Positions 4,540 through 53,650 of a stretch of DNA of 64,000 nt are shown here, in pieces. The first letter of the stretch is position 1. Every line of letters starts with the position of its first letter. The stretch lies in the NCBI RefSeq assembly GCF_057098645.1, contig NZ_CM169472.1; one strand, written 5' to 3'. The notes beneath the pieces were generated by a model that did not search any database, had not been told where the DNA came from, and saw nothing but the letters and a program-made list of their open reading frames with translations. The position numbers and the translations under genes were made by a program.

Positions 4540-7335
4540 ATGGAGATAATTATGAGAAACCTCTGTTTCTTACTGACGTTAGTGGCAACTCTGTTGCTCC
4601 CCGGGCGGCTGATTGCCGCCGCCTTACCGCAGGATGAAAAGTTAATTACCGGACAACTGGACAATGGCTTGCGATATATGATTTATCCGCATGCTCATCC
4701 AAAGGATCAGGTAAATTTATGGCTGCAAATTCATACCGGTTCATTGCAGGAAGAAGACAATGAGCGCGGCGTGGCTCATTTTGTAGAACATATGATGTTT
4801 AACGGCACAAAAGCATGGCCGGGTAATAAAGTCATCGAAACATTTGAGTCAATGGGCCTGCGTTTTGGTCGCGATGTTAATGCCTATACCAGCTATGACG
4901 AAACGGTGTATCAGGTGAGTTTGCCGACTACGCAGAAACAAAATCTGCAACAAGTGATGGCAATCTTCAGTGAATGGAGTAATGCCGCAACCTTTGAAAA
5001 ACTCGAAGTAGACGCTGAACGTGGCGTAATTACTGAGGAATGGCGTGCCCATCAGGATGCGAAATGGCGCACCTCTCAGGCGCGCCGCCCTTTCCTGCTG
5101 GCTAATACCCGTAATTTAGACCGTGAACCTATCGGCCTGATGGATACTGTCGCCACGGTCACACCGGCACAATTGCGCCAATTTTATCAACGCTGGTATC
5201 AACCAAATAATATGACCTTTATCGTGGTTGGCGATATCGACAGTAAAGAAGCGCTGGCGCTGATAAAGGATAATTTAAGTAAGCTTCCGGCTAACAAAGC
5301 AGCTGAAAATCGCGTCTGGCCGACAAAAGCCGAAAATCACCTGCGCTTTAATATCATTAATGATAAAGAAAACCGGGTGAACGGCATCGCACTCTATTAT
5401 CGCCTGCCAATGGTACAAGTGAACGATGAGCAAAGCTTTATCGAACAAGCTGAATGGAGCATGTTAGTTCAGCTGTTCAATCAACGTCTGCAGGAACGCA
5501 TACAGTCGGGCGAGTTGAAGACTATTTCTGGCGGCACTGCGCGCAGCGTTAAAATTGCACCCGATTATCAGTCGCTGTTTTTCCGTGTAAATGCACGAGA
5601 CGATAATATGCAGGATGCTGCGAATGCATTAATGGCAGAGTTGGCAACCATTGATCAGCATGGTTTTTCTGCTGAAGAACTCGATGATGTCAAATCTACC
5701 CGCCTCACCTGGCTGAAAAATGCGGTTGATCAGCAAGCTGAACGTGATTTACGTATGCTGACCAGTCGCCTGGCATCCAGCTCATTAAATAATACGCCGT
5801 TCTTGTCGCCGGAAGAGACATATCAACTTTCGAAACGTCTGTGGCAGCAAATTACCGTGCAAAGTCTGACGGAAAAATGGCAGCAGTTAAGAAAGAACCA
5901 GGACGCATTTTGGGAGCAAATGGTAAACAATGAGGTTGCCGCCAATAAAGCATTGTCTCCTGCGGCTATCCTGGCGCTGGAAAAAGAGTACGCCAACAAA
6001 AAGCTGGCGGCTTACATCTTCCCTGGCAGAAATTTATCGTTAACAGTAGACGCTGACCCACAGGCGGAAATTAGCAGCAAAGAAACGCTGGCTGAGAATC
6101 TGACATCATTAACACTTTCCAATGGTGCCAGGGTTATTCTGGCAAAATCCGCGGGTGAAGAGCAAAAGCTACAAATTACTGCCGTATCGAATAAAGGCGA
6201 GTTAAGTTTCCCTGCGCAGCAAAAATCACTTATCGCGCTGGCAAATAAAGCAGTAAGCGGAAGCGGCGTTGGTGAACTCTCCTCTTCCAGCCTGAAACGC
6301 TGGAGTGCGGAAAACTCGGTAACCATGAGCAGTAAAGTCAGTGGCATGAATACATTGCTCTCCGTTAGCGCGCGGACTAATAACCCTGAACCTGGTTTCC
6401 AGTTGATTAACCAGCGAATCACCCACAGCACGATTAACGACAATATTTGGGCATCGCTACAAAATGCTCAAATTCAGGCGTTGAAAACGCTCGACCAGCG
6501 TCCAGCGGAGAAATTCGCCCAGCAGATGTATGAGACGCGCTATGCTGATGACCGCACGAAATTACTGCAAGAAAATCAGATTGCACAGTTTACTGCCGCA
6601 GATGCGCTGGCTGCCGATCGCCAGTTGTTTTCATCTCCAGCGGATATCACGTTTGTCATTGTCGGTAATGTCGCAGAAGACAAACTCGTGGCGTTAATTA
6701 CGCGTTACTTAGGCTCAATCAAACACTCTGATTCGCCATTAGCCGCAGGTAAACCATTAACTCGCGCGACGGACAACGCATCGGTTACTGTAAAAGAACA
6801 AAATGAACCTGTGGCACAGGTTTCACAGTGGAAGCGTTATGATTCCCGGACACCTGTTAATCTGGCGACGCGTATGGCGCTCGATGCTTTTAACGTCGCA
6901 CTAGCAAAAGATCTACGCGTTAATATTCGTGAACAGGCATCTGGGGCATACAGCGTTTCTTCTCGCCTCTCGGTTGATCCTCAGGCTAAAGATATCAGTC
7001 ATTTGCTGGCTTTTACTTGTCAACCAGAACGACATGATGAACTGTTAACGTTAGCGAATGAAGTGATGGTTAAGCGTCTGGCTAAAGGGATCAGTGAGCA
7101 AGAACTGAACGAATACCAGCAAAACGTTCAGCGCAGCCTCGATATCCAACAGCGTAGCGTTCAACAATTAGCGAACACTATTGTAAATAGTCTTATTCAA
7201 TATGACGATCCTGCAGCATGGACTGAGCAGGAGCAATTATTGAAACAAATGACGGTAGAGAATGTTAACACTGCCGTTAAACAATATCTTTCTCATCCGG
7301 TAAATACTTATACCGGAGTATTATTGCCAAAATAA
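4540..7335 (+). CDS. pqqL: Periplasmic M16-family zinc metallopeptidase PqqL
   Basis: 931 aa ORF with signal peptide and inverted zinc-binding motif HFVEH; an alternative start at 4552 (MRNLCF) has the better Shine-Dalgarno (GGAGA). Confidence 0.85.
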   Translation: MEIIMRNLCFLLTLVATLLLPGRLIAAALPQDEKLITGQLDNGLRYMIYPHAHPKDQVNLWLQIHTGSLQEEDNERGVAHFVEHMMFNGTKAWPGNKVIETFESMGLRFGRDVNAYTSYDETVYQVSLPTTQKQNLQQVMAIFSEWSNAATFEKLEVDAERGVITEEWRAHQDAKWRTSQARRPFLLANTRNLDREPIGLMDTVATVTPAQLRQFYQRWYQPNNMTFIVVGDIDSKEALALIKDNLSKLPANKAAENRVWPTKAENHLRFNIINDKENRVNGIALYYRLPMVQVNDEQSFIEQAEWSMLVQLFNQRLQERIQSGELKTISGGTARSVKIAPDYQSLFFRVNARDDNMQDAANALMAELATIDQHGFSAEELDDVKSTRLTWLKNAVDQQAERDLRMLTSRLASSSLNNTPFLSPEETYQLSKRLWQQITVQSLTEKWQQLRKNQDAFWEQMVNNEVAANKALSPAAILALEKEYANKKLAAYIFPGRNLSLTVDADPQAEISSKETLAENLTSLTLSNGARVILAKSAGEEQKLQITAVSNKGELSFPAQQKSLIALANKAVSGSGVGELSSSSLKRWSAENSVTMSSKVSGMNTLLSVSARTNNPEPGFQLINQRITHSTINDNIWASLQNAQIQALKTLDQRPAEKFAQQMYETRYADDRTKLLQENQIAQFTAADALAADRQLFSSPADITFVIVGNVAEDKLVALITRYLGSIKHSDSPLAAGKPLTRATDNASVTVKEQNEPVAQVSQWKRYDSRTPVNLATRMALDAFNVALAKDLRVNIREQASGAYSVSSRLSVDPQAKDISHLLAFTCQPERHDELLTLANEVMVKRLAKGISEQELNEYQQNVQRSLDIQQRSVQQLANTIVNSLIQYDDPAAWTEQEQLLKQMTVENVNTAVKQYLSHPVNTYTGVLLPK

Positions 7336-10918: not shown

Positions 10919-12238
10919 ATGGATATCTGCTCCCGAAACGAGAAATTAGCGATTAGAAGACCAGCGATACTGGTTGCACTGGCACTTTTACTGTGTAGTT
11001 GTAAAAGCACGCCTCCAGAGTCCATGGTGACACCACCAGCAGGTTCAAAGCCACCAGCCACGACGCAACAATCGTCACAACCGATGCGTGGCATCTGGCT
11101 GGCCACGGTGTCTCGCCTCGACTGGCCACCGGTTTCCTCGGTTAACATTAGTAACCCCACCAGCCGGGCCCGTGTACAACAACAGGCGATGATCGACAAA
11201 CTGGATCATCTGCAACGTCTCGGTATAAACACGGTCTTTTTCCAGGTCAAGCCGGACGGTACCGCCCTGTGGCCTTCAAAAATTTTGCCATGGTCCGATC
11301 TTATGACCGGTAAGATTGGTGAAAATCCGGGTTACGATCCGCTGCAATTTATGCTCGACGAAGCCCACAAGCGTGGGATGAAAGTACACGCCTGGTTTAA
11401 CCCCTATCGCGTATCGGTTAATACGAAGCCCGGTACTATCAGGGAACTGAATAGCACTCTGTCTCAACAACCGGCGAGCGTCTATGTGCAACACCGTGAC
11501 TGGATCAGAACGTCTGGCGATCGCTTTGTCCTCGACCCGGGCATCCCTGAGGTTCAGGACTGGATCACATCAATAGTCGCAGAAGTGGTTTCCCGCTATC
11601 CGGTAGATGGCGTGCAGTTTGACGACTATTTCTATACTGAGTCACCGGGTTCACGGCTAAATGATAACGAAACGTACCGTAAATACGGAGGCGCATTTGC
11701 GTCAAAAGCAGACTGGCGGCGCAACAATACTCAGCAGTTAATTGCAAAGGTATCGCACACCATTAAAAGCATTAAGCCGGGAGTCGAATTTGGTGTTAGC
11801 CCGGCAGGCGTGTGGCGTAACCGATCACACGATCCGCTCGGTTCCGATACCCGAGGCGCGGCAGCCTATGACGAATCCTACGCTGACACCCGTCGATGGG
11901 TGGAACAAGGATTGCTGGATTACATTGCTCCCCAAATTTACTGGCCGTTCTCACGGAGTGCCGCGCGTTATGACGTGTTGGCAAAATGGTGGGCGGATGT
12001 CGTTAAACCGACCAGGACCCGCCTGTATATCGGTATCGCCTTCTATAAAGTGGGTGAACCTTCAAAGATAGAGCCAGACTGGATGATTAACGGCGGCGTA
12101 CCGGAACTGAAAAAGCAGCTCGATCTTAACGATGCGGTACCAGAAATTAGCGGCACCATCTTGTTCCGTGAGGACTATCTGAATAAACCGCAGACTCAAC
12201 AAGCGGTCAGCTATCTGCAAAGTCGTTGGGGCAGTTAA
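10919..12238 (+). CDS. yddW: Lipoprotein YddW (glycoside-hydrolase-like family)
   Basis: 439 aa ORF with lipoprotein-type signal (LLLCSCK). Confidence 0.85.
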   Translation: MDICSRNEKLAIRRPAILVALALLLCSCKSTPPESMVTPPAGSKPPATTQQSSQPMRGIWLATVSRLDWPPVSSVNISNPTSRARVQQQAMIDKLDHLQRLGINTVFFQVKPDGTALWPSKILPWSDLMTGKIGENPGYDPLQFMLDEAHKRGMKVHAWFNPYRVSVNTKPGTIRELNSTLSQQPASVYVQHRDWIRTSGDRFVLDPGIPEVQDWITSIVAEVVSRYPVDGVQFDDYFYTESPGSRLNDNETYRKYGGAFASKADWRRNNTQQLIAKVSHTIKSIKPGVEFGVSPAGVWRNRSHDPLGSDTRGAAAYDESYADTRRWVEQGLLDYIAPQIYWPFSRSAARYDVLAKWWADVVKPTRTRLYIGIAFYKVGEPSKIEPDWMINGGVPELKKQLDLNDAVPEISGTILFREDYLNKPQTQQAVSYLQSRWGS

Positions 12239-12609
12239 ACTCCCATTCTTACTTTGTAACAAGCCGGTACATTACCCACCGGCTTGTTACCCTCTTGAAC
12301 TATCCCACTACTAATCATGCTTACTAAAGTCAAATTAACCATGCAATTAACCACACTTAGTTAAACAGCCATAAATCCCCTAATAAAAATGTATGAATAT
12401 GAAAAACCATACGATATTCGCTGTCACCGAAAAATAATTACGATGGGCTATACTCTTCTGAAGAACAGTAGCGTAGATTGAAACTGTCCTAAGTCGCTTA
12501 TTTCTTTTCAGTATATCTTCATATTTCAGGAGAATATGGTGCAGTTAGTCGATCTCGCACGTTGCGTTTTGATTCCGTCTGATTTCCCAGCCTTATAAGA
12601 GTGTGAATT

Positions 12610-13992
12610 ATGGAGATGTATTTTAAAAGAATGAAAGATGAGTGGACCGGACTTGTCGAACAGGCAGATCCGCCCATTCGTGCTAAAGCCGCGGAAATTG
12701 CCGTTGCGCATGCTCATTATCTGAGTATCGAGTTTTATCGAATTGTCCGCATCGACCCGCATGCCGAAGAATTCTTGAGTAATGAACAAGTTGAGCGGCA
12801 GTTGAAAAGTGCGATGGAACGCTGGATTATTAACGTGCTTTCTGCCCAGGTTGACGATGTCGAAAGGCTAATACAAATCCAGCATACCGTCGCGGAAGTG
12901 CATGCCCGCATAGGAATTCCGGTAGAAATTGTCGAGATGGGGTTTCGGGTGCTGAAAAAGATCCTCTATCCGGTAATCTTCTCTTCGGATTATTCTGCCG
13001 CAGAAAAACTTCAGGTCTACCATTTCTCGATTAACAGTATTGATATCGCTATGGAAGTGATGACCCGCGCGTTTACCTTTAGTGACAGTAGTGCCTCAAA
13101 AGAAGATGAAAACTATCGTATCTTCTCGTTACTGGAAAACGCCGAAGAAGAAAAAGAACGGCAAATAGCCTCAATACTTTCATGGGAAATAGATATCATC
13201 TATAAAATCCTGCTGGATTCTGATTTAGGCAGTAGTTTGCCTTTAAGCCAGGCTGATTTTGGCCTGTGGTTTAACCATAAAGGTCGACATTATTTCAGCG
13301 GCATTGCTGAAGTGGGCCATATCTCTCGTCTGATTCAGGATTTCGACGGTATTTTCAATCAAACAATGCGTAACACCAGGAATTTGAATAACAGAAGTCT
13401 GCGGGTGAAATTTTTATTACAGATAAGAAATACTGTATCGCAAATTATTACCTTGCTGCGTGAATTGTTTGAAGAAGTATCGCGCCACGAAGTCGGTATG
13501 GATGTACTGACGAAATTACTTAACCGCCGTTTCCTGCCGACTATCTTCAAACGCGAAATTGCCCATGCCAACCGGACCGGTACACCGCTGTCAGTGCTGA
13601 TTATTGACGTTGATAAATTCAAAGAGATCAACGATACGTGGGGCCATAACACTGGCGATGAAATTCTGCGTAAAGTCTCTCAGGCCTTTTATGACAACGT
13701 CCGCAGTAGTGATTATGTTTTCCGCTACGGGGGCGATGAATTTATCATTGTTTTGACTGAAGCTTCTGAAAACGAAACGTTACGTACCGCAGAACGTATT
13801 CGCAGTCGGGTGGAGAAAACCAAACTGAAATCCGCAAACGGCGAGGATATTGCCCTCTCACTTTCCATCGGTGCCGCCATGTTTAATGGTCATCCTGACT
13901 ATGAGCGCCTCATTCAAATAGCCGATGAAGCTCTGTATATCGCCAAAAGACGAGGTAGAAACCGTGTTGAACTCTGGAAAGCCAGTCTTTAG
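12610..13992 (+). CDS. dosC: Globin-coupled diguanylate cyclase DosC
   Basis: 460 aa; N-terminal globin sensor, C-terminal GGDEF domain (RYGGDEF). Confidence 0.9.
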   Translation: MEMYFKRMKDEWTGLVEQADPPIRAKAAEIAVAHAHYLSIEFYRIVRIDPHAEEFLSNEQVERQLKSAMERWIINVLSAQVDDVERLIQIQHTVAEVHARIGIPVEIVEMGFRVLKKILYPVIFSSDYSAAEKLQVYHFSINSIDIAMEVMTRAFTFSDSSASKEDENYRIFSLLENAEEEKERQIASILSWEIDIIYKILLDSDLGSSLPLSQADFGLWFNHKGRHYFSGIAEVGHISRLIQDFDGIFNQTMRNTRNLNNRSLRVKFLLQIRNTVSQIITLLRELFEEVSRHEVGMDVLTKLLNRRFLPTIFKREIAHANRTGTPLSVLIIDVDKFKEINDTWGHNTGDEILRKVSQAFYDNVRSSDYVFRYGGDEFIIVLTEASENETLRTAERIRSRVEKTKLKSANGEDIALSLSIGAAMFNGHPDYERLIQIADEALYIAKRRGRNRVELWKASL

Positions 13993-20736: not shown

Positions 20737-21719
20737 CCCAACCCGTTCTGGACATTCAACAACTGCATTTGAGTTTCCCCGGTTTTAACGGTGATGTTCA
20801 CGCGCTCAACAATGTGTCCTTGCAGATTAACCGCGGTGAAATTGTCGGTCTGGTGGGAGAATCCGGCTCAGGTAAATCAGTCACCGCAATGCTGATTATG
20901 CGTCTGCTACCGACGGGCAGTTATTGCGTACATCGGGGGCAGATTTCCCTGCTGGGAGAAGATGTTCTTAACGCTCGGGAAAAACAGCTTCGTCAGTGGC
21001 GCGGCGCACGAGTGGCGATGATCTTTCAGGAACCGATGACCGCCCTCAATCCGACACGTCGAATAGGTCTTCAGATGATGGACGTAATCCGACATCATCA
21101 ACCAATAAGTCGTCGGGAAGCCAGAGCTAAAGCGATTGCCCTGCTGGAAGAGATGCAAATCCCGGATGCCGTGGAAGTTATGTCGCGCTATCCGTTTGAG
21201 CTTTCAGGTGGTATGCGCCAGCGGGTTATGATTGCGCTGGCATTTTCCTGCGAGCCGCAATTGATTATTGCCGACGAACCGACTACGGCGCTGGACGTCA
21301 CGGTACAGTTGCAGGTACTGCGTTTGCTTAAACATAAAGCTCGCGCCAGTGGAACTGCGGTACTGTTCATCAGCCATGATATGGCCGTGGTGTCGCAACT
21401 GTGCGATAGCGTTTACGTGATGTATGCCGGAAGCGTAATTGAAAGCGGCGTGACGGCAGACGTTATCCATCATCCCCGGCATCCGTATACCATTGGTTTG
21501 CTGCAATGCGCACCAGAACATGGAGTACCACGCCAGCCATTACCCGCCATTCCAGGGACGGTACCAAACCTCACCCATTTGCCTGACGGCTGCGCTTTTC
21601 GCGATCGTTGCTATGCGGCAGGTGCACAGTGTGAAAACGTCCCGGCGCTAACAGCGTGTGGTGACAACAACCAGCGCTGCGCCTGTTGGTATCCGCAGCA
21701 GGAGGTCATAAGTGTCTGA
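20733..21719 (+). CDS. ddpD: Dipeptide ABC transporter ATP-binding protein
   Basis: 328 aa; Walker A GESGSGKS, signature LSGGMRQR. Confidence 0.9.
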   Translation: MTQPVLDIQQLHLSFPGFNGDVHALNNVSLQINRGEIVGLVGESGSGKSVTAMLIMRLLPTGSYCVHRGQISLLGEDVLNAREKQLRQWRGARVAMIFQEPMTALNPTRRIGLQMMDVIRHHQPISRREARAKAIALLEEMQIPDAVEVMSRYPFELSGGMRQRVMIALAFSCEPQLIIADEPTTALDVTVQLQVLRLLKHKARASGTAVLFISHDMAVVSQLCDSVYVMYAGSVIESGVTADVIHHPRHPYTIGLLQCAPEHGVPRQPLPAIPGTVPNLTHLPDGCAFRDRCYAAGAQCENVPALTACGDNNQRCACWYPQQEVISV

Positions 21720-22638
21720 CACGTTATTAACGTTACGCGACGTCCATATCAATTTCCCGGCCCGTAAAAACTGGCTTGGTAAAACTACGGAACATGTTCA
21801 TGCCATTAATGGTATTGATTTACAGATCCGCCGTGGTGAAACCTTAGGGATCGTCGGCGAGTCAGGCTGCGGCAAAAGCACCCTCGCACAGCTTTTAATG
21901 GGTATGCTGCAACCGAGCCACGGGCAGTACATCCGTTCTGGCTCACAACGCATTATGCAGATGGTGTTTCAGGACCCGCTCTCTTCGCTCAATCCGCGCT
22001 TACCGGTGTGGCGCATCATCACAGAACCGCTCTGGATAGCTAAGCGTAGTAGTGAACAACAGCGGCGAGCGTTGGCAGAGGAGCTGGCTGTGCAGGTGGG
22101 TATTCGTCCGGAGTATCTCGACCGCCTGCCTCATGCGTTCTCCGGCGGGCAGCGGCAACGCATCGCCATTGCCAGAGCACTCTCTTCGCAGCCTGACGTG
22201 ATTGTGCTTGATGAGCCAACCTCTGCGCTGGATATCTCCGTGCAGGCACAGATCCTCAATTTACTGGTAACGCTACAGGAAAATCACGGGCTGACTTATG
22301 TGCTGATTTCACACAATGTCTCGGTGATACGTCATATGAGCGATCGGGTGGCGGTGATGTATCTCGGGCAGATTGTGGAATTAGGGGAAGCGCAACAGGT
22401 GCTAACGGCTCCGGCACATCCATACACCCGATTATTGCTGGATTCCCTCCCCGCCATTGATAAACCACTGGAGGAAGAATGGGCATTACGTAAAACGGAT
22501 CTGCCGGGAAACCGCACGTTGCCGCAAGGCTGTTTTTTCCGCGAACGTTGCCCCCTTGCAACCAGCGGATGCGAAGTCCGGCAATCATTAGCAATAAGGG
22601 AGGACGGACGTGAGATCCGTTGCTGGCGGGCGCTGTAG
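21712..22638 (+). CDS. ddpF: Dipeptide ABC transporter ATP-binding protein
   Basis: 308 aa; Walker A GESGCGKST, signature FSGGQRQR. Confidence 0.9.
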   Translation: MSDTLLTLRDVHINFPARKNWLGKTTEHVHAINGIDLQIRRGETLGIVGESGCGKSTLAQLLMGMLQPSHGQYIRSGSQRIMQMVFQDPLSSLNPRLPVWRIITEPLWIAKRSSEQQRRALAEELAVQVGIRPEYLDRLPHAFSGGQRQRIAIARALSSQPDVIVLDEPTSALDISVQAQILNLLVTLQENHGLTYVLISHNVSVIRHMSDRVAVMYLGQIVELGEAQQVLTAPAHPYTRLLLDSLPAIDKPLEEEWALRKTDLPGNRTLPQGCFFRERCPLATSGCEVRQSLAIREDGREIRCWRAL

Positions 22639-22674
22639 GACGCGGCATCCGGCTATTGCATGTCTGCGGAAACG

Positions 22675-23565
22675 TTATGCGTCATAGGTTTTTTTTAACG
22701 TTTCCATCAACGCCTGCGCCGCAGTAGAAAGCTTATGGTGTGACGAACGCAGTACGCCTACTCGTCGCTCAATCACTGGATTATCCAGTTCCAGACACAC
22801 TGCGCCCAGTTCGCTCATCTGCCTGCGGCACAGCGCAGGCACAGCGCTTCCTCCCAAACCGTTTGCCACCAGCCGCCCAACCGTAACCAGTTGATGGCTT
22901 TCCAGCGCCACTTCCAGTTGCGTTCCACTTTGTGCCAACTGCTCCTCCAGCATCAACCTGACGGCTGACGGTCGCTGGAGGGTGATAAAATCGAGCGTCA
23001 GCAAATCCCGCCAACTCACGCGTTGCCGATTTGCCAGTCGTGAATCGGCTGGAACAATAGCGACAAACCGATCCACGCCCAGTGGGGTAAAATGCACATG
23101 GCCGCAATAGTCAGGTTCAAAGGCAATACCCATCTCCACACGCCCTTCGCTCACCATTTCGATCACCTGCTCATTCACCACATCGTGCACGGTGACATTA
23201 ATCCCTGAATAACAATCGCGGAAGGTTTTCAGCACCGGAGGCAGAACGTTGGCTGCAAATGACGGCATCGCTGCCACCGAGACTTTTCCCCGCCTGAGCG
23301 TGAATCGCTGACGCATGGCCTCCTCAGTGTTATCCCAGTCAGCCAGCAAAGGCCGTGCCATCGACAATAGCGTTTCCCCCTCCTGGGTTAATGTCACTTT
23401 TCGCGTAGTACGCAGCAGTAAAGCGCCCCCTAAGGCATCTTCCAGTCCTTTAATGGTAAGACTTAGCGCAGGCTGCGACATATTCAGCCGTTCACTGGCA
23501 TGGGCAAAGTTCAGAGTGTGAGCTACCGCTAAAAACGCGCGTAACTGTTTGATGCTCATTTTCAT
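22675..23565 (-). CDS. LysR-family transcriptional regulator, divergent from the catabolic operon
   Basis: 296 aa; N-terminal HTH (IKQLRAFLAVAHTLNFAHASERLNMSQPALS). Confidence 0.85.
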   Translation of the reverse strand: MKMSIKQLRAFLAVAHTLNFAHASERLNMSQPALSLTIKGLEDALGGALLLRTTRKVTLTQEGETLLSMARPLLADWDNTEEAMRQRFTLRRGKVSVAAMPSFAANVLPPVLKTFRDCYSGINVTVHDVVNEQVIEMVSEGRVEMGIAFEPDYCGHVHFTPLGVDRFVAIVPADSRLANRQRVSWRDLLTLDFITLQRPSAVRLMLEEQLAQSGTQLEVALESHQLVTVGRLVANGLGGSAVPALCRRQMSELGAVCLELDNPVIERRVGVLRSSHHKLSTAAQALMETLKKTYDA

Positions 23566-23706
23566 CTGGCACTCCGTTAACCTACTGAATACATTTAATT
23601 AACATTATATTGATAAATAATACAAATGAATGAGTCACAAATTTAAAATTAACAAATCATTTTTTGCCCTTAATGATGTTGAAAAGGACAACTGGAGGGC
23701 AACTGT

Positions 23707-24414
23707 ATGGCTGGGTTGGATAAACGGGTCGCTACGTATCACGAGGCACTTGAAGGACTTACCAATGAGATGACGATTCTGGCAGGAGGTTTTGGCCTGT
23801 GCGGCATCCCGGAGAATCTGATTGCTGAAGTTCGCCACCGTGGAGTAACCGGATTAACGGTGGTTTCCAATAACTGTGGCGTAGATGGTTTTGGACTGGG
23901 TGTACTACTGGAAAGCCGACAGATCCGTAAAGTCGTCGCTTCTTATGTTGGCGAGAATGCTTTGTTTGAAAAACAGGTGCTTAACGGCGAACTGGAGGCG
24001 ATTCTCACACCACAAGGAACCCTGGCAGAACAACTGCGCGCAGGCGGCGCGGGTATCCCGGCGTTCTTTACTGCCACCGGTTACGGTACTCCCGTTGCCG
24101 AAGGGAAAGAAGTCCGCGAATTCAACGGTCGCCCGTACATCATGGAACAGGCTATCACCGGTGATTTTGCCCTGGTCAAAGGCTGGAAAGCCGACTGGTA
24201 CGGCAACGTGATTTATCGTCATACCGCGCAAAACTTCAACCCACTGATGGCGGCTGCCGGAAAAATCACCGTGGTGGAAGTGGAAGAAATAGTGCCACCT
24301 GGTGAACTTGATCCTGCCGCTATCCATACCCCGGGGATTTTTGTTAATCGCGTCATTCAGGGGCAATTTGAAAAACGCATTGAACAACGCACCCTTAGCC
24401 GCAAAGGAGCCTGA
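23707..24414 (+). CDS. 3-oxoacid (acetoacetate) CoA-transferase subunit A
   Basis: 235 aa AtoD/ScoA-like sequence. Confidence 0.85.
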
Positions 24415-24416
24415 CC

Positions 24417-25073
24417 ATGTTAACCCGTGAACAAATGGCGATGCGAGTCGCCCGCGAATTGCGCGATGGCTATTACGTCAATCTCGGCATTGGTATCCCG
24501 ACCCTGGTGGCAAACTACATTCCTGACGGGATGGATGTGATGTTGCAGTCAGAAAACGGTTTGCTGGGAATGGGCGCATTTCCTACGGAAGACGAACTGG
24601 ACGCCGACATGATTAATGCCGGTAAACAAACCGTTACCGCGCGGAAAGGCGCGGCAATTTTCGATTCGGCGCAATCATTCGCCATGATCCGTGGCGGTCA
24701 TGTGGATCTGACTGTACTTGGCGCATTTGAAGTGGATGTGAATGGCAACATTGCCTCATGGATGATCCCCGGCAAGATGGTTAAAGGCATGGGCGGTGCC
24801 ATGGATCTGGTTGCCGGTGCCGAGAATATTATTGTGGTAATGACCCACGCCTCCAAATCCGGCGAATCCAAACTGCTTCCTGACTGTACCCTTCCGTTGA
24901 CCGGCGCCGGATGCATCAAACGCGTCTTAACCGACCTTGCTCTGCTGGAAATTGCTGACGGAGCTTTCATTCTGCGCGAGCGCGCGCCGGGAATCAGCGT
25001 TGCGGAAATCATCGCCAAAACCGCCGGTAAGTTGTTTGTGCCGGAACATGTCCCGGAAATGCAATTCAACTGA
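24417..25073 (+). CDS. 3-oxoacid (acetoacetate) CoA-transferase subunit B
   Basis: 218 aa AtoA/ScoB-like; conserved SENG glutamate motif. Confidence 0.85.
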   Translation: MLTREQMAMRVARELRDGYYVNLGIGIPTLVANYIPDGMDVMLQSENGLLGMGAFPTEDELDADMINAGKQTVTARKGAAIFDSAQSFAMIRGGHVDLTVLGAFEVDVNGNIASWMIPGKMVKGMGGAMDLVAGAENIIVVMTHASKSGESKLLPDCTLPLTGAGCIKRVLTDLALLEIADGAFILRERAPGISVAEIIAKTAGKLFVPEHVPEMQFN

Positions 25074-25082
25074 GGAATCACC

Positions 25083-26288
25083 ATGCAGGACGTTGTTATT
25101 GTTGCCGCTACGCGCACACCGATTGGCTGTTTTCATGGCGCTCTCGCCCCACTTTCTGCGGTTGATCTCGGTGCTGCCACCATCCGTTCGTTGCTGGAGA
25201 AAACCGCACTTGCAGCAGAACAGATCGACGAAGTGATTTTTGGTCAGGTCCTGACCGCCGGAAGCGGACAAAACCCGGCACGACAATCGGCGCTCAAAGC
25301 CGGGTTAAGCCACAATACACCCGCCGTTACCATCAACCTGGTATGTGGTTCCGGTCTGAAAGCCGTACACCAGGCAGTGCAGGCGATCCGTTGCGGTGAT
25401 GCACAGATAATTATCGCAGGTGGCCAGGAAAGCATGAGCAACGCGCCCTATTTTATTGATGGCGCGCGGGCAGGTTTACGCCTCGGGCATACCAGCATGA
25501 AAGACAGCGTGGTTCATGACGGACTATGGGATGCTTTCAATGATTACCACATGGGCATTACTGCAGAAAACCTGGCGCAAAAATATGCCATCAGTCGCGA
25601 GCGACAGGACACATTCGCGCTACGTTCTCAGCAAAAAGCCGCTGCCGCAATGGAAGCCGGGCGCTTTGCAGACGAAATTACTCCGGTGAGCGTACCACAA
25701 GGTAAAAAACCACCACGCTGGGTAAATACCGACGAACAACCACGTTCCGGGACGCAACTGGAAAAACTAGCGCAACTGAAACCGGCCTTTCTTCCGGGGG
25801 CGGGAAGCGTCACCGCAGGAAATGCCTCTTCCATTAATGATGGTGCCGCCGCAGTCATGTTAATGCGCGCCAGCAAAGCTGCTGAACTGGGCCTCCCAGT
25901 GCTGGCTCGGGTGGCAGGTTATGCCGTTTCTGGCGTCGATCCTGCCTTTATGGGCATTGGTCCGGTCGCCGCTACCCGCGAATGTCTTAAGCGTTGCGGA
26001 TGGACGCTGGAAGATATTGATCTTATTGAAGCCAACGAGGCTTTCGCAGCGCAGGCGCTGGCCGTTGGCGACGAACTGAACTGGGATTGCGACAAAGTGA
26101 ATGTTAACGGCGGCGCAATCGCACTTGGGCATCCTATTGGCGCTTCCGGTTGCCGCATTCTGGTCACTCTCATTTATGAAATGGCGCGACGTAATGCGCA
26201 AAAAGGGCTGGCGACGCTGTGCGTCGGTGGCGGTCAGGGCGTGGCGCTGACACTGGAAAGAACCACAGAAGAACACCATGCAAACTGA
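25083..26288 (+). CDS. Acetyl-CoA C-acetyltransferase (thiolase II)
   Basis: 401 aa; typical thiolase motifs including C-terminal GGGQG. Confidence 0.9.
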
Positions 26289-27201
26289 ACAATTTGCGGT
26301 ACTGGGCGCCGGATTGATGGGCGTGGGGATTGCCACTCATTTCGCCCGCTTTGGTCATGATATCTGGCTGTACGATACCGAGCAGAGCCGGATTGCAGAA
26401 ATCCACGTAGTTGCAGGCGGAATTCTTGATGAGCTGATTAGCTGCGAACAGTTTACTGCCCCGGAAAAAGAGAATGTGCTTAAACGTCTGCACGGCACGA
26501 CTTCTCTTGCAGACATCGCCGACTCGCAACTACTGATTGAGGCGATCCCGGAGCGACTTGAACTAAAACACGCATTATATACCGAGCTTGAAACGCTTAT
26601 TTCTCCTGAGGCCATTGTCGCCAGCAATACCAGCGGTCTGCCGCCCGATGATCTGGCCGCGAAAATGCGCTACCCGCAACGACTGCTGATCGCCCATTTC
26701 TGGCATCCGCCGCACTTCATTCCACTTGTGGAGATTATCCCCGGCAGCGTTACCGAGCCAAAGCATTTGCACTGGCTGCAACACTTGCTTGTGTCACTGC
26801 AACTGGAAGCAGTGTTGCTGGATCGCGCTGCGCCAGGATTTGTCGGCAACCGTCTGCAATTTGCACTGTTGCGTGAAGCCCTGCATATCGTAAAAAGCGG
26901 CATCGCCAGTGCAGAAGTGGTGGATCAGGTGATGCGCGCCTCGCTTGGGCGACGTTATGCCATGGTCGGCCCGCTGGAGGCCGCCGACATGACCGGACTT
27001 TCGACGGTGCAGGATATTTGTCGCCATCTGCTCCCTGAACTAGCGACTGGCAGCGACATGATGTCATTAGTTGCCGAAAAAGTGGAACGTGGAGACATCG
27101 GCGTACGTAGCGGTCAGGGATTTTACTGCTGGGATGAATCGCGGAAGCAGTACATCCAGCAGAGTCGGGAACATCAACTTCGCTTCGCCCTTAAACCATA
27201 A
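26278..27201 (+). CDS. NAD-dependent 3-hydroxyacyl-CoA dehydrogenase family protein
   Basis: 307 aa; Rossmann motif [12 protein letters not shown] at N-terminus. Confidence 0.75.
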
Positions 27202-27246
27202 CTTCTCTCGCTGTACCCACTATAACAACGATATTGAGGAGTCCCG

Positions 27247-28638
27247 ATGAGTGTATTAATCGCCCTTGCCGCGCTTGGGCTGCTAATGCTGGCAGCCTAT
27301 CGCGGATACAGCGTTATCCTTTTTGCCCCCATCGCAGCATTAGGCGCTGTTCTTGTCACCGATCCGGGGGCCGTTGGCCCAGCATTTACCGGCCTGTTCA
27401 TGGAAAAAATGGTCGGCTTCGTGAAATTGTACTTCCCGGTGTTTCTGCTCGGGGCCGTGTTCGGAAAACTGATTGAACTTTCAGGATTTTCTCGTTCGAT
27501 TGTCGCTGCTGCAATCAACATTCTCGGCCGGCGGCATGCGATTCCGGTGATTGTGCTGGTATGTGCATTACTCACCTATGGCGGAGTGTCGCTGTTTGTG
27601 GTGGCATTTGCCGTTTATCCGTTCGCGGCTGAACTGTTCCGCCAGAGTAACATCCCAAAACGACTTATACCGGCAACGGTGGCCCTGGGGGCATTCTCTT
27701 TTACTATGGACGCTCTGCCCGGCACGCCACAAATTCAGAACATTATTCCTACCAGTTTCTTTGGCACCAACGCCTGGGCCGCGCCGTGGCTGGGGCTTAT
27801 TGGTTCACTGTTTATCATTGCCGTCGGGCTTATCTATCTGGAGCGGCAGCGTCGTAAAGCGCAGGCAAAAAATGAAGGTTACGGCACAGAGTTACTTAAT
27901 GAACCTGAAACACCAGATAACATCAATTTACCGAACCCACTCATTGCGATTTCACCATTGATTCTGGTGGGGCTGTTGAACTTGTTGTTTACCTGGTGGA
28001 TCCCTGTTTGGTACGGTGCGAGCCACCAACTGGAGTTGCCGGGACTTGCCGCCCCGATTACCACAGATGTCGCCAAAATCACCGCAATCTGGGCCGTCGA
28101 AGCTGCGCTCATTGCCGGAATTTTGCTGGTAGTGATTTTTGGATATCGCAATATTCATGGAAGACTGGCAGAAGGAAGCCGTACAGCGGTGGGCGGCGCA
28201 ATTCTGGCTGCGATGAACACCGCCTCAGAATATGGCTTCGGTGCGGTTATCGCCGCCCTACCCGGTTTTCTGGTGCTCTCAAAGGCGCTGGCCGCCATTC
28301 CTGATCCATTACTCAACGAAGCCATCAGCATCACCACACTTGCCGGAATTACCGGTTCAGCGTCCGGCGGGATGAGTATTGCTCTTGCGGCTATGTCCGA
28401 CACTTTTATTGCCGCTGCGCACGCTGCCAATATTCCACTGGAAGTTTTTCACCGCGTGGCATCTATGGCCAGTGGCGGCATGGATACATTGCCCCATAAC
28501 GGCGCTGTGATCACCCTGCTGGCAATTACTGGGCTGAGTCACCGTCAGGCTTACGGCGGCATCTTCGCAATTACGATCATTAAAAGTCTGGCCGTGCTGT
28601 TTATCATCGGCGTGTACTACACCACCGGCATTGTCTAA
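27247..28638 (+). CDS. Polytopic permease, GntP-like (candidate 3-hydroxybutyrate/acetoacetate transporter)
   Basis: 463 aa hydrophobic protein; substrate inferred from operon context only. Confidence 0.6.
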   Translation: MSVLIALAALGLLMLAAYRGYSVILFAPIAALGAVLVTDPGAVGPAFTGLFMEKMVGFVKLYFPVFLLGAVFGKLIELSGFSRSIVAAAINILGRRHAIPVIVLVCALLTYGGVSLFVVAFAVYPFAAELFRQSNIPKRLIPATVALGAFSFTMDALPGTPQIQNIIPTSFFGTNAWAAPWLGLIGSLFIIAVGLIYLERQRRKAQAKNEGYGTELLNEPETPDNINLPNPLIAISPLILVGLLNLLFTWWIPVWYGASHQLELPGLAAPITTDVAKITAIWAVEAALIAGILLVVIFGYRNIHGRLAEGSRTAVGGAILAAMNTASEYGFGAVIAALPGFLVLSKALAAIPDPLLNEAISITTLAGITGSASGGMSIALAAMSDTFIAAAHAANIPLEVFHRVASMASGGMDTLPHNGAVITLLAITGLSHRQAYGGIFAITIIKSLAVLFIIGVYYTTGIV

Positions 28639-28649
28639 GGAAAATCATC

Positions 28650-29420
28650 ATGAATTTACAAGGTAAAACTGCGCTGGTGACGGGGTCCACCAGCGGTATC
28701 GGACTCGGTATTGCTCAGACACTGGCAAACGCTGGCGCGCAAGTGATCCTCAACGGCTTCGGTGATGTTGACGCGGCAATCAATGCGGTTTCTCGTATGG
28801 GTAAAACGCCTGGCTATCATGAGGCAGACCTCAGCGATGAATCGCAAATTATCAACATGGTGGCCTACGCACGGCGGGAATTTGGCGGTGTGGACATTCT
28901 GGTGAATAACGCCGGGATCCAGTATGTCTCCCCGGTTGAATCTTTCCCTGTAGAAAAATGGAACGCCATTATCGCTATCAATCTCTCTTCTGTCTTTCAC
29001 ACCACGCGTCTGGCACTGCCAGAAATGCGCACTCGTAACTGGGGTCGGATCATTAACATTGCCTCTGTGCATGGGCTGGTAGCGTCGAAAGACAAATCAG
29101 CTTATGTTGCGGCAAAACATGGCGTGGTGGGACTCACAAAGACCATTGCTCTGGAAACTGCGCAGACGGGTATTACCTGCAACGCGCTCTGCCCTGGCTG
29201 GGTGCTGACGCCGCTGGTACAACAGCAGATTGATAAGCGCATTGCGCAAGGCGAAGATGCGGAAAGCGCGCGTGACGCCTTACTGGCAGAAAAACAGCCT
29301 TCTCGTGAATTTGTGACTCCGCAACAACTGGGTGAACTGGCGCTGTTTCTCTGTTCGGATGCGGCAGCACAAGTGCGTGGGGTGGCGTGGAATATGGATG
29401 GCGGTTGGGTAGCGCAGTAA
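28650..29420 (+). CDS. Short-chain dehydrogenase, 3-hydroxybutyrate dehydrogenase-like
   Basis: 256 aa SDR; TGSTSGIG cofactor motif and YVAAKHG catalytic motif. Confidence 0.8.
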   Translation: MNLQGKTALVTGSTSGIGLGIAQTLANAGAQVILNGFGDVDAAINAVSRMGKTPGYHEADLSDESQIINMVAYARREFGGVDILVNNAGIQYVSPVESFPVEKWNAIIAINLSSVFHTTRLALPEMRTRNWGRIINIASVHGLVASKDKSAYVAAKHGVVGLTKTIALETAQTGITCNALCPGWVLTPLVQQQIDKRIAQGEDAESARDALLAEKQPSREFVTPQQLGELALFLCSDAAAQVRGVAWNMDGGWVAQ

Positions 29421-29426
29421 GTGTTC

Positions 29427-29448
29427 GCCGGATGACGCGTCATCCGGC
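29427..29448. repeat. Perfect 22-bp palindrome GCCGGATGACGCGTCATCCGGC between convergent SDR gene and osmC (REP-like, possible bidirectional terminator)
   Basis: Seen in sequence; a related half-motif GCGGCATCCGGC occurs at 22641-22652, the other edge of the catabolic insertion. Confidence 0.5.
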
Positions 29449-29454
29449 AATGCT

Positions 29455-29886
29455 TTACGATTTCAACTGGTAATCCAGCGTAATTTCCGCTTTCAGTACC
29501 TGAGAGACCGGGCATCCTGCTTTTGCTTTCTGGATGATGCCGTCAAAGGTAGAGGCATCAATACCCGGCACCGCAACTTCACTCTTCAGGGCGATTTTCG
29601 TAATCGCAAAACCGGCATCCACTTTATCCAGCGACACATCGGCGGTGGTATCAATCGATGTTGGCGTGAATCCCGCTTCCCCCAGCATTAATGAAAGCGC
29701 CATTGAGAAACATGCGGCATGCGCTGCGCCAATCAGTTCCTCAGGGTTGGTTCCTTTTTCGCCTTCAAAACGCGTGTTAAATCCATACGGCTGTTGGTTC
29801 AGCACGCCACTCTCGGTGGATACTGTTCCCTTCCCGCGTTTGATATCGCCTTCCCAGTGTGCCTGACCTTTCTTATGGATTGTCAT
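29455..29886 (-). CDS. osmC: Osmotically inducible peroxiredoxin OsmC
   Basis: 143 aa, recognised sequence. Confidence 0.95.
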   Translation of the reverse strand: MTIHKKGQAHWEGDIKRGKGTVSTESGVLNQQPYGFNTRFEGEKGTNPEELIGAAHAACFSMALSLMLGEAGFTPTSIDTTADVSLDKVDAGFAITKIALKSEVAVPGIDASTFDGIIQKAKAGCPVSQVLKAEITLDYQLKS

Positions 29887-30231
29887 TGTTGCTCTCCTGT
29901 GGGCTTAAAAAGGAAATTATAGACTACGTGAGAAACAGCACGAGGATAAGCAGGATATTCCGAATAAAATCCGGCAGAAAATATTACTTCTGCACTTAAA
30001 TTAAATTCCCACAATTGATAACGGGGAATATATAACCCAAAAGATATTGCATCAATATTAATCGAATAGTCCCAATCACAATCCCTATGAATATCATGGT
30101 GTTAAAATATAAAAATCATCAACCAGGACTAATCTTAACAACGAAGCGGCAAATATTTGCCATGCTGAATATGCTTTATAAATCTGCGATCCGTAGCAGA
30201 CACCATAAATACACAGACACGGAGAATCACT

Positions 30232-30447
30232 ATGTTTACTTATTATCAGGCAGAAAATTCAACAGCAGAACCCGCTCTGGTTAATGCCATTGAGCAAGGC
30301 CTTCGGGCAGAGCACGGTGTTGTCACTGAAGATGACATTCTCATGGAGCTGACCAAATGGGTGGAAGCTTCTGATAACGACATCCTCAGTGATATCTACC
30401 AACAAACGATCAATTATGTGGTCAGTGGCCAGCACCCTACGCTTTAA
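30232..30447 (+). CDS. bdm: Biofilm-dependent modulation protein
   Basis: 71 aa (MFTYYQAENSTAEPALVNAIEQG...). Confidence 0.9.
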   Translation: MFTYYQAENSTAEPALVNAIEQGLRAEHGVVTEDDILMELTKWVEASDNDILSDIYQQTINYVVSGQHPTL

Positions 30448-30548
30448 GGTGCTATGCTTGATCGGCAACCTAATTTAGGGGTTTAGCACGTGTTTCTTCG
30501 CTACGGCGATGTTGTCCTTAAAACTAGCAACAGGATTGAGGAGTTAAA

Positions 30549-30686
30549 ATGAAATCGAACCGTCAGGCACGTCATATTCTTGGACTGGACCATAAAATTT
30601 CTAACCAGCGCAAAATAGTTACCGAAGGTGACAAATCCAGCGTGGTAAATAACCCAACCGGCAGAAAACGCCCCGCTGAAAAGTAA
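30549..30686 (+). CDS. sra: Stationary-phase ribosome-associated protein Sra
   Basis: 45 aa ([45 protein letters not shown]) with Shine-Dalgarno GAGGAG; below the ORF track size cutoff, found by reading the sequence. Confidence 0.85.
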
Positions 30687-30715
30687 TTCATAACCATTAG
30701 TCCTCAATGACGATT

Positions 30716-30750
30716 AAACACCATTGCCTGCGCAATGGTGTTTTTGTTTT
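30716..30750 (+). terminator. Rho-independent terminator after sra
   Basis: CACCATTGC-CTGC-GCAATGGTG followed by TTTTTGTTTTT. Confidence 0.6.
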
Positions 30751-30841
30751 TATCTGCTTTATACTTGGGGCCGACGCCCTGGCGGTAAAGCAAAGACGAT
30801 AAAAGCCCCCAGGGATGGATATTCAAAAAAGAGTGAGTGAC

Positions 30842-32539
30842 ATGGAACCAAAAACAAAAAAACAGCGTTCGCTTTATATCCCTTACGCTGGCCCTGTACT
30901 GCTGGAATTTCCGTTGTTGAATAAAGGCAGTGCCTTCAGCATGGAAGAACGCCGTAACTTCAACCTGCTGGGGTTACTGCCGGAAGTGGTCGAAACCATC
31001 GAAGAACAAGCGGAACGAGCATGGATCCAGTATCAGGGATTCAAAACCGAAATCGACAAACACATCTACCTGCGTAACATCCAGGACACTAACGAAACCC
31101 TCTTCTACCGTCTGGTAAACAATCATCTTGATGAGATGATGCCTGTTATTTATACCCCAACCGTCGGCGCAGCCTGTGAGCGTTTTTCTGAGATCTACCG
31201 CCGTTCACGCGGCGTGTTTATCTCTTACCAGAACCGGCACAATATGGATGATATTCTGCAAAACGTACCAAACCATAATATTAAAGTGATTGTGGTGACT
31301 GACGGTGAACGTATTCTGGGGCTTGGTGACCAGGGCATCGGCGGGATGGGCATTCCGATCGGTAAACTGTCGCTCTATACCGCCTGTGGCGGCATCAGCC
31401 CGGCGTATACCCTTCCGGTGGTGCTGGATGTCGGGACGAATAACCAACAGCTGCTTAACGATCCGCTGTATATGGGCTGGCGTAATCCGCGTATCACTGA
31501 CGACGAATACTATGAATTCGTTGATGAATTTATCCAGGCTGTGAAACAACGCTGGCCAGACGTGCTGTTGCAGTTTGAAGACTTTGCTCAAAAAAATGCG
31601 ATGCCGTTACTTAACCGCTATCGCAATGAAATTTGTTCTTTTAACGATGACATTCAGGGCACTGCGGCGGTAACAGTCGGCACACTGATCGCAGCAAGCC
31701 GCGCGGCAGGTGGTCAACTGAGCGAGAAAAAAATCGTCTTCCTTGGCGCAGGTTCAGCGGGATGCGGCATTGCCGAAATGATCATCGCCCAGACCCAGCG
31801 TGAAGGATTAAGCGAGGAAGCAGCGAGGCAGAAAGTCTTTATGGTCGATCGCTTTGGCCTGCTGACTGACAAGATGCCGAACCTGCTGCCTTTCCAGACC
31901 AAACTGGTGCAGAAGCGCGAAAACCTCAGTGACTGGGATACCGACAGCGATGTGCTGTCACTGCTGGATGTGGTGCGCAATGTAAAACCAGATATTCTGA
32001 TTGGCGTCTCAGGACAGACCGGGCTGTTTACGGAAGAGATCATCCGTGAGATGCATAAACACTGTCCGCGTCCGATCGTGATGCCGCTGTCTAACCCGAC
32101 GTCACGCGTGGAAGCCACACCGCAGGACATTATCGCCTGGACCGAAGGTAACGCGCTGGTCGCCACGGGCAGCCCGTTTAATCCAGTGGTATGGAAAGAT
32201 AAAATCTACCCTATCGCCCAGTGTAACAACGCCTTTATTTTCCCAGGCATCGGCCTGGGTGTTATTGCTTCCGGCGCGTCACGTATCACCGATGAGATGC
32301 TGATGTCGGCAAGTGAAACGCTGGCGCAGTATTCACCATTAGTGCTGAACGGCGAAGGTATGGTACTGCCGGAACTGAAAGATATTCAGAAAGTCTCCCG
32401 CGCAATTGCGTTTGCGGTTGGCAAAATGGCGCAGCAGCAAGGCGTGGCGGTGAAAACCTCTGCCGAAGCCCTGCAACAGGCCATTGACGATAATTTCTGG
32501 CAAGCCGAATACCGCGACTACCGCCGTACCTCCATCTAA
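30842..32539 (+). CDS. maeA: NAD-dependent malic enzyme
   Basis: 565 aa from [23 protein letters not shown]. Confidence 0.92.
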
Positions 32540-34110: not shown

Positions 34111-34315
34111 AAAATGGCGCCTTTTACAGCGCCATTTGAAACTGATGACAAACGCAACATTGCCTGATGCGCTACGCTTATCAGGCCTACACGTTCACTG
34201 CAATCTATTGGATTTGAACGGTTTGTAGGCCGGATAAGGCGTTCACGCCGCATCCGGCATGAACAAAGCCTACGTTGTCTACAATATGAAAATGGCGCCT
34301 TTTACAGCGCCATTT
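34111..34315. repeat. BIME/REP cluster flanked by a duplicated terminator-like hairpin (AAAATGGCGCCTTTTACAGCGCCATTT at both ends)
   Basis: Two inverted REP-like motifs (GCCTGATGCGCTACGCTTATCAGGCCTAC and GTAGGCCGGATAAGGCGTTCACGCCGCATCCGGC) between two copies of the same ~27-bp hairpin. Confidence 0.6.
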
Positions 34316-53565: not shown

Positions 53566-53650
53566 CGTTGTCTGATGCGCTTCGCCTGTCAGGTCTACAA
53601 CCGGGCTAATGTATGCCGGATAAGGCGTTTACGCCGCATCCGGCAACCTG
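53566..53650. repeat. REP/BIME element between yddE and nhoA
   Basis: REP-like palindromic motifs including GCCGGATAAGGCGTTTACGCCGCATCCGGCA. Confidence 0.55.

Follow-up and report, generated by a model that had tools for sequence, protein, structure and literature searches.

The stretch of DNA analysed here (the window; 64,000 nucleotides of contig NZ_CM169472.1, assembly GCF_057098645.1) carries seven genes between ddpF and osmC, which we propose to form a chromosomal, LysR-controlled operon for the use of 3-hydroxybutyrate and, very probably, also of acetoacetate as a carbon source. The operon would be ancestral at this place; most Escherichia coli would have lost it through a deletion of about 6.76 kb, and the intact allele would have been mobile in recent times. 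We assign this reading, which is drawn from sequence comparisons, a probability of roughly 0.72.

Window positions 22000–30000 present a 100% match to E. coli O145 str. RM9872 (NZ_CP028379.1). The ORF (open reading frame) listing and the RefSeq annotation give seven intact ORFs between the stop codon of ddpF (22638) and that of osmC (29455). In K-12 MG1655 these stop codons are 55 nt apart, likewise in O157:H7, and a spacer of about 55 nt is present in the large majority of the 5,409 genomes that matched; the surplus of the window relative to the K-12 and O157:H7 junction is about 6.76 kb. The original prediction, made from the letters of the window, had placed about 6.8 kb of extra DNA here and considered its genes absent from K-12. 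Both points were borne out when the junction was aligned with K-12 and other E. coli, the seven genes being absent at the MG1655 junction. The gene content it had listed, from the LysR regulator to the short-chain dehydrogenase/reductase (SDR), also agrees with family models, solved homologues and motifs. The features of the locus, including its repetitive extragenic palindrome (REP)-like edges, are the following.

21712–22638, + strand: ddpF, last gene of the ddp operon, left flank; annotated in RefSeq in RM9872, with ABC ATPase family matches
22639–22653, + strand: left half-REP motif GACGCGGCATCCGGC, direct repeat (14/15) of 29434–29448
22675–23565, − strand: LysR-type regulator, divergent from the operon; Pfam domains
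23566–23706, strand not applicable: divergent control region; promoter scan and multi-taxon alignment
23707–24414, + strand: predicted 3-oxoacid CoA-transferase subunit A (SCOT/ScoA type); TIGR02429
24417–25073, + strand: predicted 3-oxoacid CoA-transferase subunit B; TIGR02428
25083–26288, + strand: predicted acetoacetyl-CoA thiolase (acetyl-CoA C-acetyltransferase); TIGR01930
26278–27201, + strand: oxidoreductase of the 3-hydroxyacyl-CoA dehydrogenase (HADH) family; Pfam 3HCDH_N and 3HCDH
27247–28638, + strand: putative IT-superfamily GntP-like carboxylate permease, 463 aa; remote homologues and AlphaFold model
28650–29420, + strand: predicted SDR D-3-hydroxybutyrate dehydrogenase (bdh); NF009093 and TIGR01963
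29427–29448, strand not applicable: perfect 22-nt palindrome GCCGGATGACGCGTCATCCGGC, REP-like hairpin where bdh and osmC converge, between their stop codons
29455–29886, − strand: osmC, right flank; TIGR03562 (204 bits vs cut-off 85.8), annotated in RefSeq

The six genes of the + strand are tightly spaced, with intergenic gaps of 2, 9, 45 and 11 nt and one overlap of 11 nt, between the thiolase and HADH-family genes. All seven genes presented dN/dS values of 0.007–0.13 and appear to be under strong purifying selection.

Proposed ancestry of the operon and its probable deletion

The order and orientation of ddpF, the LysR gene, scoA, scoB, thl, hadh, perm, bdh, osmC and maeA are the same in Citrobacter youngae, in three further Citrobacter species and in the divergent Escherichia SCPM-O-B-8794. 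In C. sedlakii the cluster adjoins osmC-bdm-sra-maeA, and its left neighbours are MCP and hdeA-like genes, not ddpF. Nucleotide identity to the window decreases in parallel inside and outside the cluster. In E. coli 2013C-4282 it is 96.4–97.9% for the cluster and 95–97.6% for most of the flanks, with bdm and sra at about 100%; in SCPM-O-B-8794, 90.6–94.0% for the cluster genes and 87–95.7% for the flanking genes; and in C. youngae, 75–81% and 73.5–87%, respectively. Synonymous divergence (dS) of the cluster tracks that of the flanks at these three depths. The G+C content of the cluster (52–56%) is like that of the flanks, and neither the ORF listing nor the RefSeq annotation contains an integrase, transposase or tRNA in the cluster. 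These comparisons support an operon ancestral at the ddpF-osmC site in the Escherichia/Citrobacter lineage, with loss in K-12 as the probable direction of change.

The 55-nt spacer of K-12 aligns to a remnant of the left cluster end (GCATC[A/C]GGC-ATT-CATG), then to the hairpin of the right end, with a 3-nt gap. The alignment score of the left remnant is 20, vs 10.8 ± 2.3 in shuffled sequences, and 20 of the 5,000 shuffles reach it. The empty site holds 34 extra nt that find their counterpart, by alignment, in the cluster's left end, and folding indicates that the fused halves form a new hairpin in the K-12-type spacer. With remnants of both cluster ends aligned in the spacer, the site is best explained by a single, old deletion of about 6.76 kb. 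This event, spanning approximately window positions 22664–29423, would have joined the half-REP located 3' of ddpF to the bdh/osmC hairpin and so produced the 55-nt spacer of K-12, O157:H7 and most E. coli, and would later have become the majority allele.

The B2 strains (Nissle, ST131) have no part of the ddpXABCDF operon, and in them dosP adjoins osmC. The spacer beside dosP has the same remnant as the K-12-type sites (Nissle locus, positions 5834–6023), and homology resumes at window position 29433. The junction therefore has three structural alleles; the loss of the ddp operon in B2 strains would be later than the deletion of the cluster. The locus may be taken as a clear case where genes that are extra relative to K-12 mean a loss in K-12 and not a gain.

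Distribution and probable spread of the intact allele

Among 5,426 complete E. coli genomes, 230 (about 4%) carry at least 80% of the cluster, IAI1 and E24377A among them; it is thus not strain-specific, a possibility raised in the original prediction. In 226 of these 230 carriers the cluster is at least 99% identical to the window, and all 233 places where it was found are chromosomal, none on a plasmid. In one E. coli genome (BEC1-S17-ESBL-07, NZ_AP022295.1) the cluster ends after about 75% of its length, inside the permease gene, so that the 3' end of this gene and bdh are missing; one further genome holds a copy that is only 90–95% identical.

The detailed comparison took in eight genomes with the cluster. 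In seven carriers whose flank haplotypes differ, a set that includes O145, IAI1, PCN033, 33F4, MLI121 and EC1515, the cluster diverges by 0.03–1.15%, while adjacent flanks diverge by 0.4–5% (up to 5% in the adjacent half of ddpF and up to 3.9% on the osmC side). The exception is 2013C-4282, with 3.1% in the operon and the flanks alike. The flanks follow the strain background; the ddpF of the window resembles that of O157:H7 over most of its length, yet O157 is without the cluster. The density of single-nucleotide polymorphisms (SNPs) switches abruptly at both edges, 9–40 bp to the left of 22639 and 3–160 bp to the right of 29433. In addition, PCN033 differs from the window by 22 SNPs in about 750 bp of the thiolase gene (25172–25916; about 3%), while the remaining cluster is 99.8% identical. 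Some positions of this patch are shared with the divergent allele of 2013C-4282, and the mosaic indicates that cluster alleles recombine with each other.

As divergence in the cluster is far below that of the flanks, the intact allele seems to have spread among lineages more recently than the flanks diverged, presumably by homologous recombination, and would persist in about 4% of E. coli. The sharp edges may represent either recombination tracts that came from donors devoid of the operon and halted at the heterology, or the transfer of a REP-bounded unit. A more specific history, to which we give even odds, is that the operon is ancestral to the genus but the copies of O145, B1 and D strains are recent re-acquisitions from other E. 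coli, replacing a deleted allele, either by ordinary recombination in the flanking homology or as one discrete unit, with the two REP-like ends as its limits. The low divergence of the cluster, the O157-like ddpF of the window, the abrupt switches in SNP density and the mosaic of PCN033 all agree with it. Against it, ordinary homologous recombination should leave hitch-hiking donor flanks, and none is visible; the same pattern could arise if the operon was kept vertically and its flanks were repeatedly overwritten by cluster-free donors, with tracts stopping at the heterology; and the detailed comparison covers only the eight genomes. Under the ancestral reading, this old operon would have survived at low frequency, as an allele still passing from one lineage to another.

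The carriers include cattle-associated O145:H28 Shiga toxin-producing E. coli, many strains from animals, soil and water, and B1 references such as IAI1, which makes the cluster a candidate niche trait. 3-Hydroxybutyrate is one of the ketone bodies of the host and also the monomer from which bacterial polyhydroxybutyrate is built. Should the functional prediction hold, about 4% of E. coli can use this compound by a route unavailable to K-12.

The predicted 3-hydroxybutyrate pathway

In the proposed pathway, the GntP-like permease would import 3-hydroxybutyrate; the SDR dehydrogenase would oxidize D-(R)-3-hydroxybutyrate to acetoacetate; a transferase of the succinyl-CoA:3-ketoacid CoA-transferase (SCOT) type would convert acetoacetate to acetoacetyl-CoA, with succinyl-CoA as the probable donor; and the thiolase would cleave acetoacetyl-CoA to two acetyl-CoA. 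The HADH-family enzyme would produce either acetoacetate, by oxidizing free (S)-3-hydroxybutyrate, or acetoacetyl-CoA, by oxidizing (S)-3-hydroxybutyryl-CoA. The main route, which leads from 3-hydroxybutyrate by way of acetoacetate and then acetoacetyl-CoA to acetyl-CoA, had been proposed in the original prediction, and is well supported by family models, solved homologues, catalytic motifs and gene context.

The product of bdh is a predicted NAD-dependent D-3-hydroxybutyrate dehydrogenase (EC 1.1.1.30), an assignment well supported by homology. It exceeds the cut-offs of NF009093 (370.7 vs 258) and TIGR01963 (343 vs 307), and matches over its full length the solved 3-hydroxybutyrate dehydrogenases 5yss (5.6e-146) and 2q2q of Pseudomonas putida (6e-116). 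The S-x-H...K...Y-x-x-x-K region is kept, its block IASVHGLVASKDKSAYVAAKHG aligning position for position with 2q2q and with the 2yz7 sequence group, and NNAGIQ and PLVQQQI are also conserved relative to the solved enzymes. From the general literature, we take Ser, Tyr and Lys to be the catalytic residues, and His, Lys and Gln to be those that hold the substrate carboxylate.

Subunit A of the CoA-transferase reaches 244.8 bits with TIGR02429 (cut-off 128.5), and its closest solved relatives are subunits A of SCOT (3rrl and 3cdk, about 1e-92), as against 1e-50 for AtoD. Subunit B reaches 327 bits with TIGR02428 (cut-off 243.55) and contains the catalytic-glutamate motif QSENG. By these matches the transferase is of the SCOT type rather than the AtoDA type. 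The thiolase presented 502 bits with TIGR01930 (cut-off 240.55), matches to solved thiolases down to 3e-184, and the Cys/His/Cys catalytic motifs, including CVGGGQG; with the subfamily model NF004206 it scored 677, slightly below the cut-off of 688.

The HADH-family protein passes only the general Pfam domains 3HCDH_N and 3HCDH. No model was above its cut-off in the NCBIfam scan, where FHMPC dehydrogenase (220.8 vs 500, the best match) and PRK06129 (199 vs 347), both of enzymes acting on free acids, stood first, and the Hbd models PRK05808 (180.9 vs 408), PRK07819 (160.6 vs 319) and PRK07530 (150.8 vs 420) also failed; the protein fits neither set of enzymes. Its closest solved relative is the FHMPC dehydrogenase 4om8 (8.7e-49), with Hbd next (about 1e-39). 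Proteins of the PRK06129/lambda-crystallin type, which like FHMPC dehydrogenase are free-substrate enzymes, are also among its best relatives, and one UniRef record names it L-gulonate 3-dehydrogenase. The GxGxxG (NAD site), SNTSG, H...E and GNR motifs are intact, with the Ser/His-Glu/Asn catalytic set. This gene is missing from the otherwise identical clusters of Enterobacter MGH24 and Pluralibacter gergoviae, and a Pseudomonas oryzihabitans cluster has it at a rearranged place. It thus has the character of an optional module.

The pathway of the original prediction gave the HADH-family gene no role. Enzymes of this family are S-specific and the SDR is R-specific; as the transferase is of the 3-oxoacid type, entry of the S-enantiomer is the most economical role for the enzyme. 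It would most likely feed the L-(S)-enantiomer into the pathway, as the free acid or the CoA ester. A narrower combination, in which the enzyme is a free-acid (S)-3-hydroxybutyrate dehydrogenase of a hitherto uncharacterised lineage, serving a dual-enantiomer ketone-body pathway, and the allele also travels as a REP-bounded unit instead of by ordinary recombination in the flanking homology, is put forward as doubtful and tentative; if true, the SDR would oxidize the R-form and the HADH-family enzyme the S-form, with acetoacetate as the common product.

It seems unlikely that the operon serves a different substrate, whether acetoacetate alone or another short acid of the 3-hydroxy or 3-oxo kind (such as 3-hydroxyvalerate), the real entry step then being set by the HADH-family enzyme. 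The nearest characterised relatives of this enzyme act on unrelated free substrates (FHMPC, L-gulonate), and SDR and SCOT enzymes often accept C5 analogues, both of which would leave room for such a substrate. However, the SDR passes two curated models of 3-hydroxybutyrate dehydrogenase and is close to biochemically and structurally defined D-3-hydroxybutyrate dehydrogenases, the pairing of the permease with bdh is shared with the 3-hydroxybutyrate genes of P. putida, and the clusters devoid of the HADH-family gene are otherwise identical.

The permease did not match the Pfam GntP model PF02447 even at E ≤ 10, and searches of Pfam, NCBIfam and the PDB sequences gave no match at all. An exhaustive search at E ≤ 1e-3 recovered a highly conserved family of 3,286 representatives at 50% identity. 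Of 47 selected homologues (32–71% identity), 34 match PF02447, the best at 1.1e-17. The AlphaFold model (pLDDT 92.6) resembles MleN, TRAP SiaQM (TRAP-M), YdaH and VcINDY (DASS). The protein is described as GntP-like by transitive homology only, with a predicted elevator-type fold of the IT superfamily. Its gene is directly 5' of bdh in about 70 Pseudomonas species, and we predict it to be a 3-hydroxybutyrate importer. The branch of this family found in Enterobacteriaceae and Pseudomonas is missed by the Pfam GntP_permease model and by every NCBIfam model, a gap in library coverage.

The regulator matches PF00126 (HTH_1, 3.9e-20) and PF03466 (LysR_substrate, 2.3e-41), with dN/dS of 0.03–0.06, and no equivalog reached its cut-off in the NCBIfam scan. 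The 141-nt divergent region contains a dyad, GTTAAC (23576–23581) and TTAAC (23599–23603) separated by 17 nt; in Klebsiella this dyad forms a perfect palindrome. The region also has a sigma-70-like promoter, found by the promoter scan as a match to the consensus only (TTAACA at 23649–23654 and AATGAT at 23672–23677, with a 17-nt spacer). A Shine-Dalgarno sequence, GGAGGG, is located at 23694–23699. All these blocks are nearly invariant in an alignment of 11 taxa (genera or species), from Escherichia to Pluralibacter. Sites found in the promoter and terminator scan were no more frequent than in shuffled sequence, and only the cross-genus conserved promoter was retained. The regulator may bind at the GTTAAC-N17-TTAAC dyad. 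In PCN033, a 1-nt deletion by a T8 run (window position 22687) shifts the last codons of the LysR gene, which is annotated 21 nt longer in this strain (912 nt vs 891 nt).

The enzymology is of a familiar kind and the genes are annotated in RefSeq; the operon adds an uncharacterised example to a type of pathway that is well known. Bacillus subtilis has the yxjC-scoA-scoB-yxjF operon for a permease, the two SCOT subunits and a 3-hydroxybutyrate dehydrogenase, which is not known to include a thiolase, HADH-family gene or LysR regulator. The structure of its ScoA (3cdk) ranks with the best matches for subunit A (1.6e-91). The atoDAEB/AtoSC system of K-12 performs the same acetoacetate chemistry, with a CoA-transferase followed by a thiolase, and its transferase is of the AtoDA type, as opposed to the SCOT type found here. 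The ato system is not known to include a 3-hydroxybutyrate dehydrogenase, and uses AtoE, a transporter of a different family, and a two-component regulator.

In P. putida, PP_3074, a permease for D-beta-hydroxybutyrate, and the dehydrogenase PP_3073 belong to one operon, and these genes, as well as the transferase genes atoAB (PP_3122-3), presented fitness defects on 1,3-butanediol by random barcode transposon sequencing (RB-TnSeq); this diol is degraded through 3-hydroxybutyrate (bioRxiv 10.1101/2020.07.04.188060). PP_3074 is likened to the E. coli permease by gene pairing. A permease gene next to bdh, as in the window, is a feature of the Pseudomonas genomes recovered in this analysis, species of the putida group among them, with about 77% amino acid identity for the permease and about 70% for the dehydrogenase. 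Pseudomonas has its transferase and thiolase genes at other places and relies on a sigma-54-dependent regulator (bioRxiv 10.1101/2020.07.04.188060), whereas the E. coli cluster joins all steps, the LysR gene and the HADH-family gene in one divergent unit.

Orthologous seven-gene clusters of Citrobacter and Klebsiella pneumoniae present identical order and orientation, 71–96% amino acid identity and a conserved control region, but that of Klebsiella adjoins budR-budABC and not osmC. In the rare Salmonella carriers the cluster is located beside transketolase genes, and in one assembly bdh is split by an insertion sequence (DDE_Tnp_1; positions 11841–12977 of that locus).

Several points weigh against the proposed operon and its history. 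The similarity between the K-12 spacer and the left cluster end is short (18 aligned columns, p ~0.004). The synteny scan took one genome per species. As E. albertii, E. fergusonii and representatives of Salmonella and Klebsiella are absent among the 80 loci listed, the depth of ancestry rests on Citrobacter and two divergent Escherichia lineages. The cluster is at other loci in Klebsiella and Salmonella, so it must have moved at some point in the history of the family. As to function, the permease has no direct match to the GntP Pfam model, and the HADH-family protein passes no equivalog model, so that the substrate proposed for it is a guess. The literature search recovered no studies of growth, expression or enzyme activity for the E. 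coli cluster genes, and all functions consequently rest on homology and gene context. No experimental work on the Klebsiella orthologue came up in the one search that named this genus, and no search was aimed at Citrobacter.

REP-like edges of the cluster

The original prediction described related palindromic motifs at the two edges. The perfect 22-bp palindrome at 29427–29448 is confirmed by the sequence; the left motif, GCGGCATCCGGC, is also present, but at 22642–22653, one base away from the reported 22641–22652. Together the edges hold an imperfect direct repeat of 15 nt, GACGCG[G/T]CATCCGGC, at 22639–22653 and 29434–29448, for which the chance expectation is 0.03 matches in the window. 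Canonical REP and bacterial interspersed mosaic elements (GCCGGATAAGGCGTTYACGCCGCATCCGGC) are located at window positions 34162–34258 and 53615–53644 and provide an internal reference for these ends. The left motif resembles the right half of the canonical REPs at 34229 and 53615, and a diverged copy of it, GCATCAGGC, survives in the K-12-type spacer. The arms of the palindrome, GCCGGAT...ATCCGGC, match the canonical REPs of the window, with a length of 22 nt vs 30. The hairpin lacks a U-tract, its folding energies are −21.8 and −19.7 kcal/mol for the two strands (z about −4.5), and no Rfam family was found in 22000–31500 at E ≤ 0.1.

A GCCGGAT...ATCCGGC hairpin likewise separates bdh from osmC in SCPM-O-B-8794, the divergent Escherichia, and in three of the five Citrobacter loci that were read; the other two, C. 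sedlakii and one further locus, present different hairpins at this position. The right arm is kept in the K-12-type and B2 spacers. The hairpin thus appears to be a resident intergenic REP-like element rather than an insertion scar, and the 15-nt repeat is best regarded as REP-derived.

The original prediction had considered these edges to be consistent with insertion at a REP-like hairpin. A horizontally acquired cassette, with K-12 representing the ancestral empty site, would fit the absence of the genes from K-12 and about 96% of E. coli, the REP-like motifs and direct repeat at both edges, and the low-diversity blocks that stop right at the cluster edges; it is nevertheless very improbable, since Citrobacter and divergent Escherichia have the ddpF-cluster-osmC arrangement with cluster and flanks co-diverging, the hairpin lies between bdh and osmC in those genera too, the cluster contains no mobility genes or compositional anomaly, and the K-12 spacer looks like fused remnants, with 34 extra nt that align to the left cluster end, so that taking the insert out of the occupied site would not yield the empty one.

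Three other origins of the pattern were rejected. Simple excision through the 15-nt direct repeat was set aside because of the 34 extra nt retained in the empty site. Recent transfer from Citrobacter was set aside because of an identity that is lower for the cluster (74–81%) than for adjacent core genes (83–88%). A plasmid origin was likewise set aside, the plasmid matches being four Klebsiella records only, at about 73% identity, two of them megabase-sized; the Klebsiella plasmid record that was examined (120 kb) contains the chromosomal bud locus beside the cluster.

At the 3' end of ddpF, window positions 22591–22602 form a hypervariable block with two haplotypes, of the GGAGGACGGAC and GGCTGACGGAC types, which track neither the presence of the cluster nor the haplotype of the remaining ddpF. 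In E. coli KMi006, a 17-nt tandem duplication (GCTGTAGAGATGCTAAC twice; positions 1633–1666 of its locus) takes in the ddpF stop codon and explains why its empty-site span is 1256 bp instead of 1239 bp.

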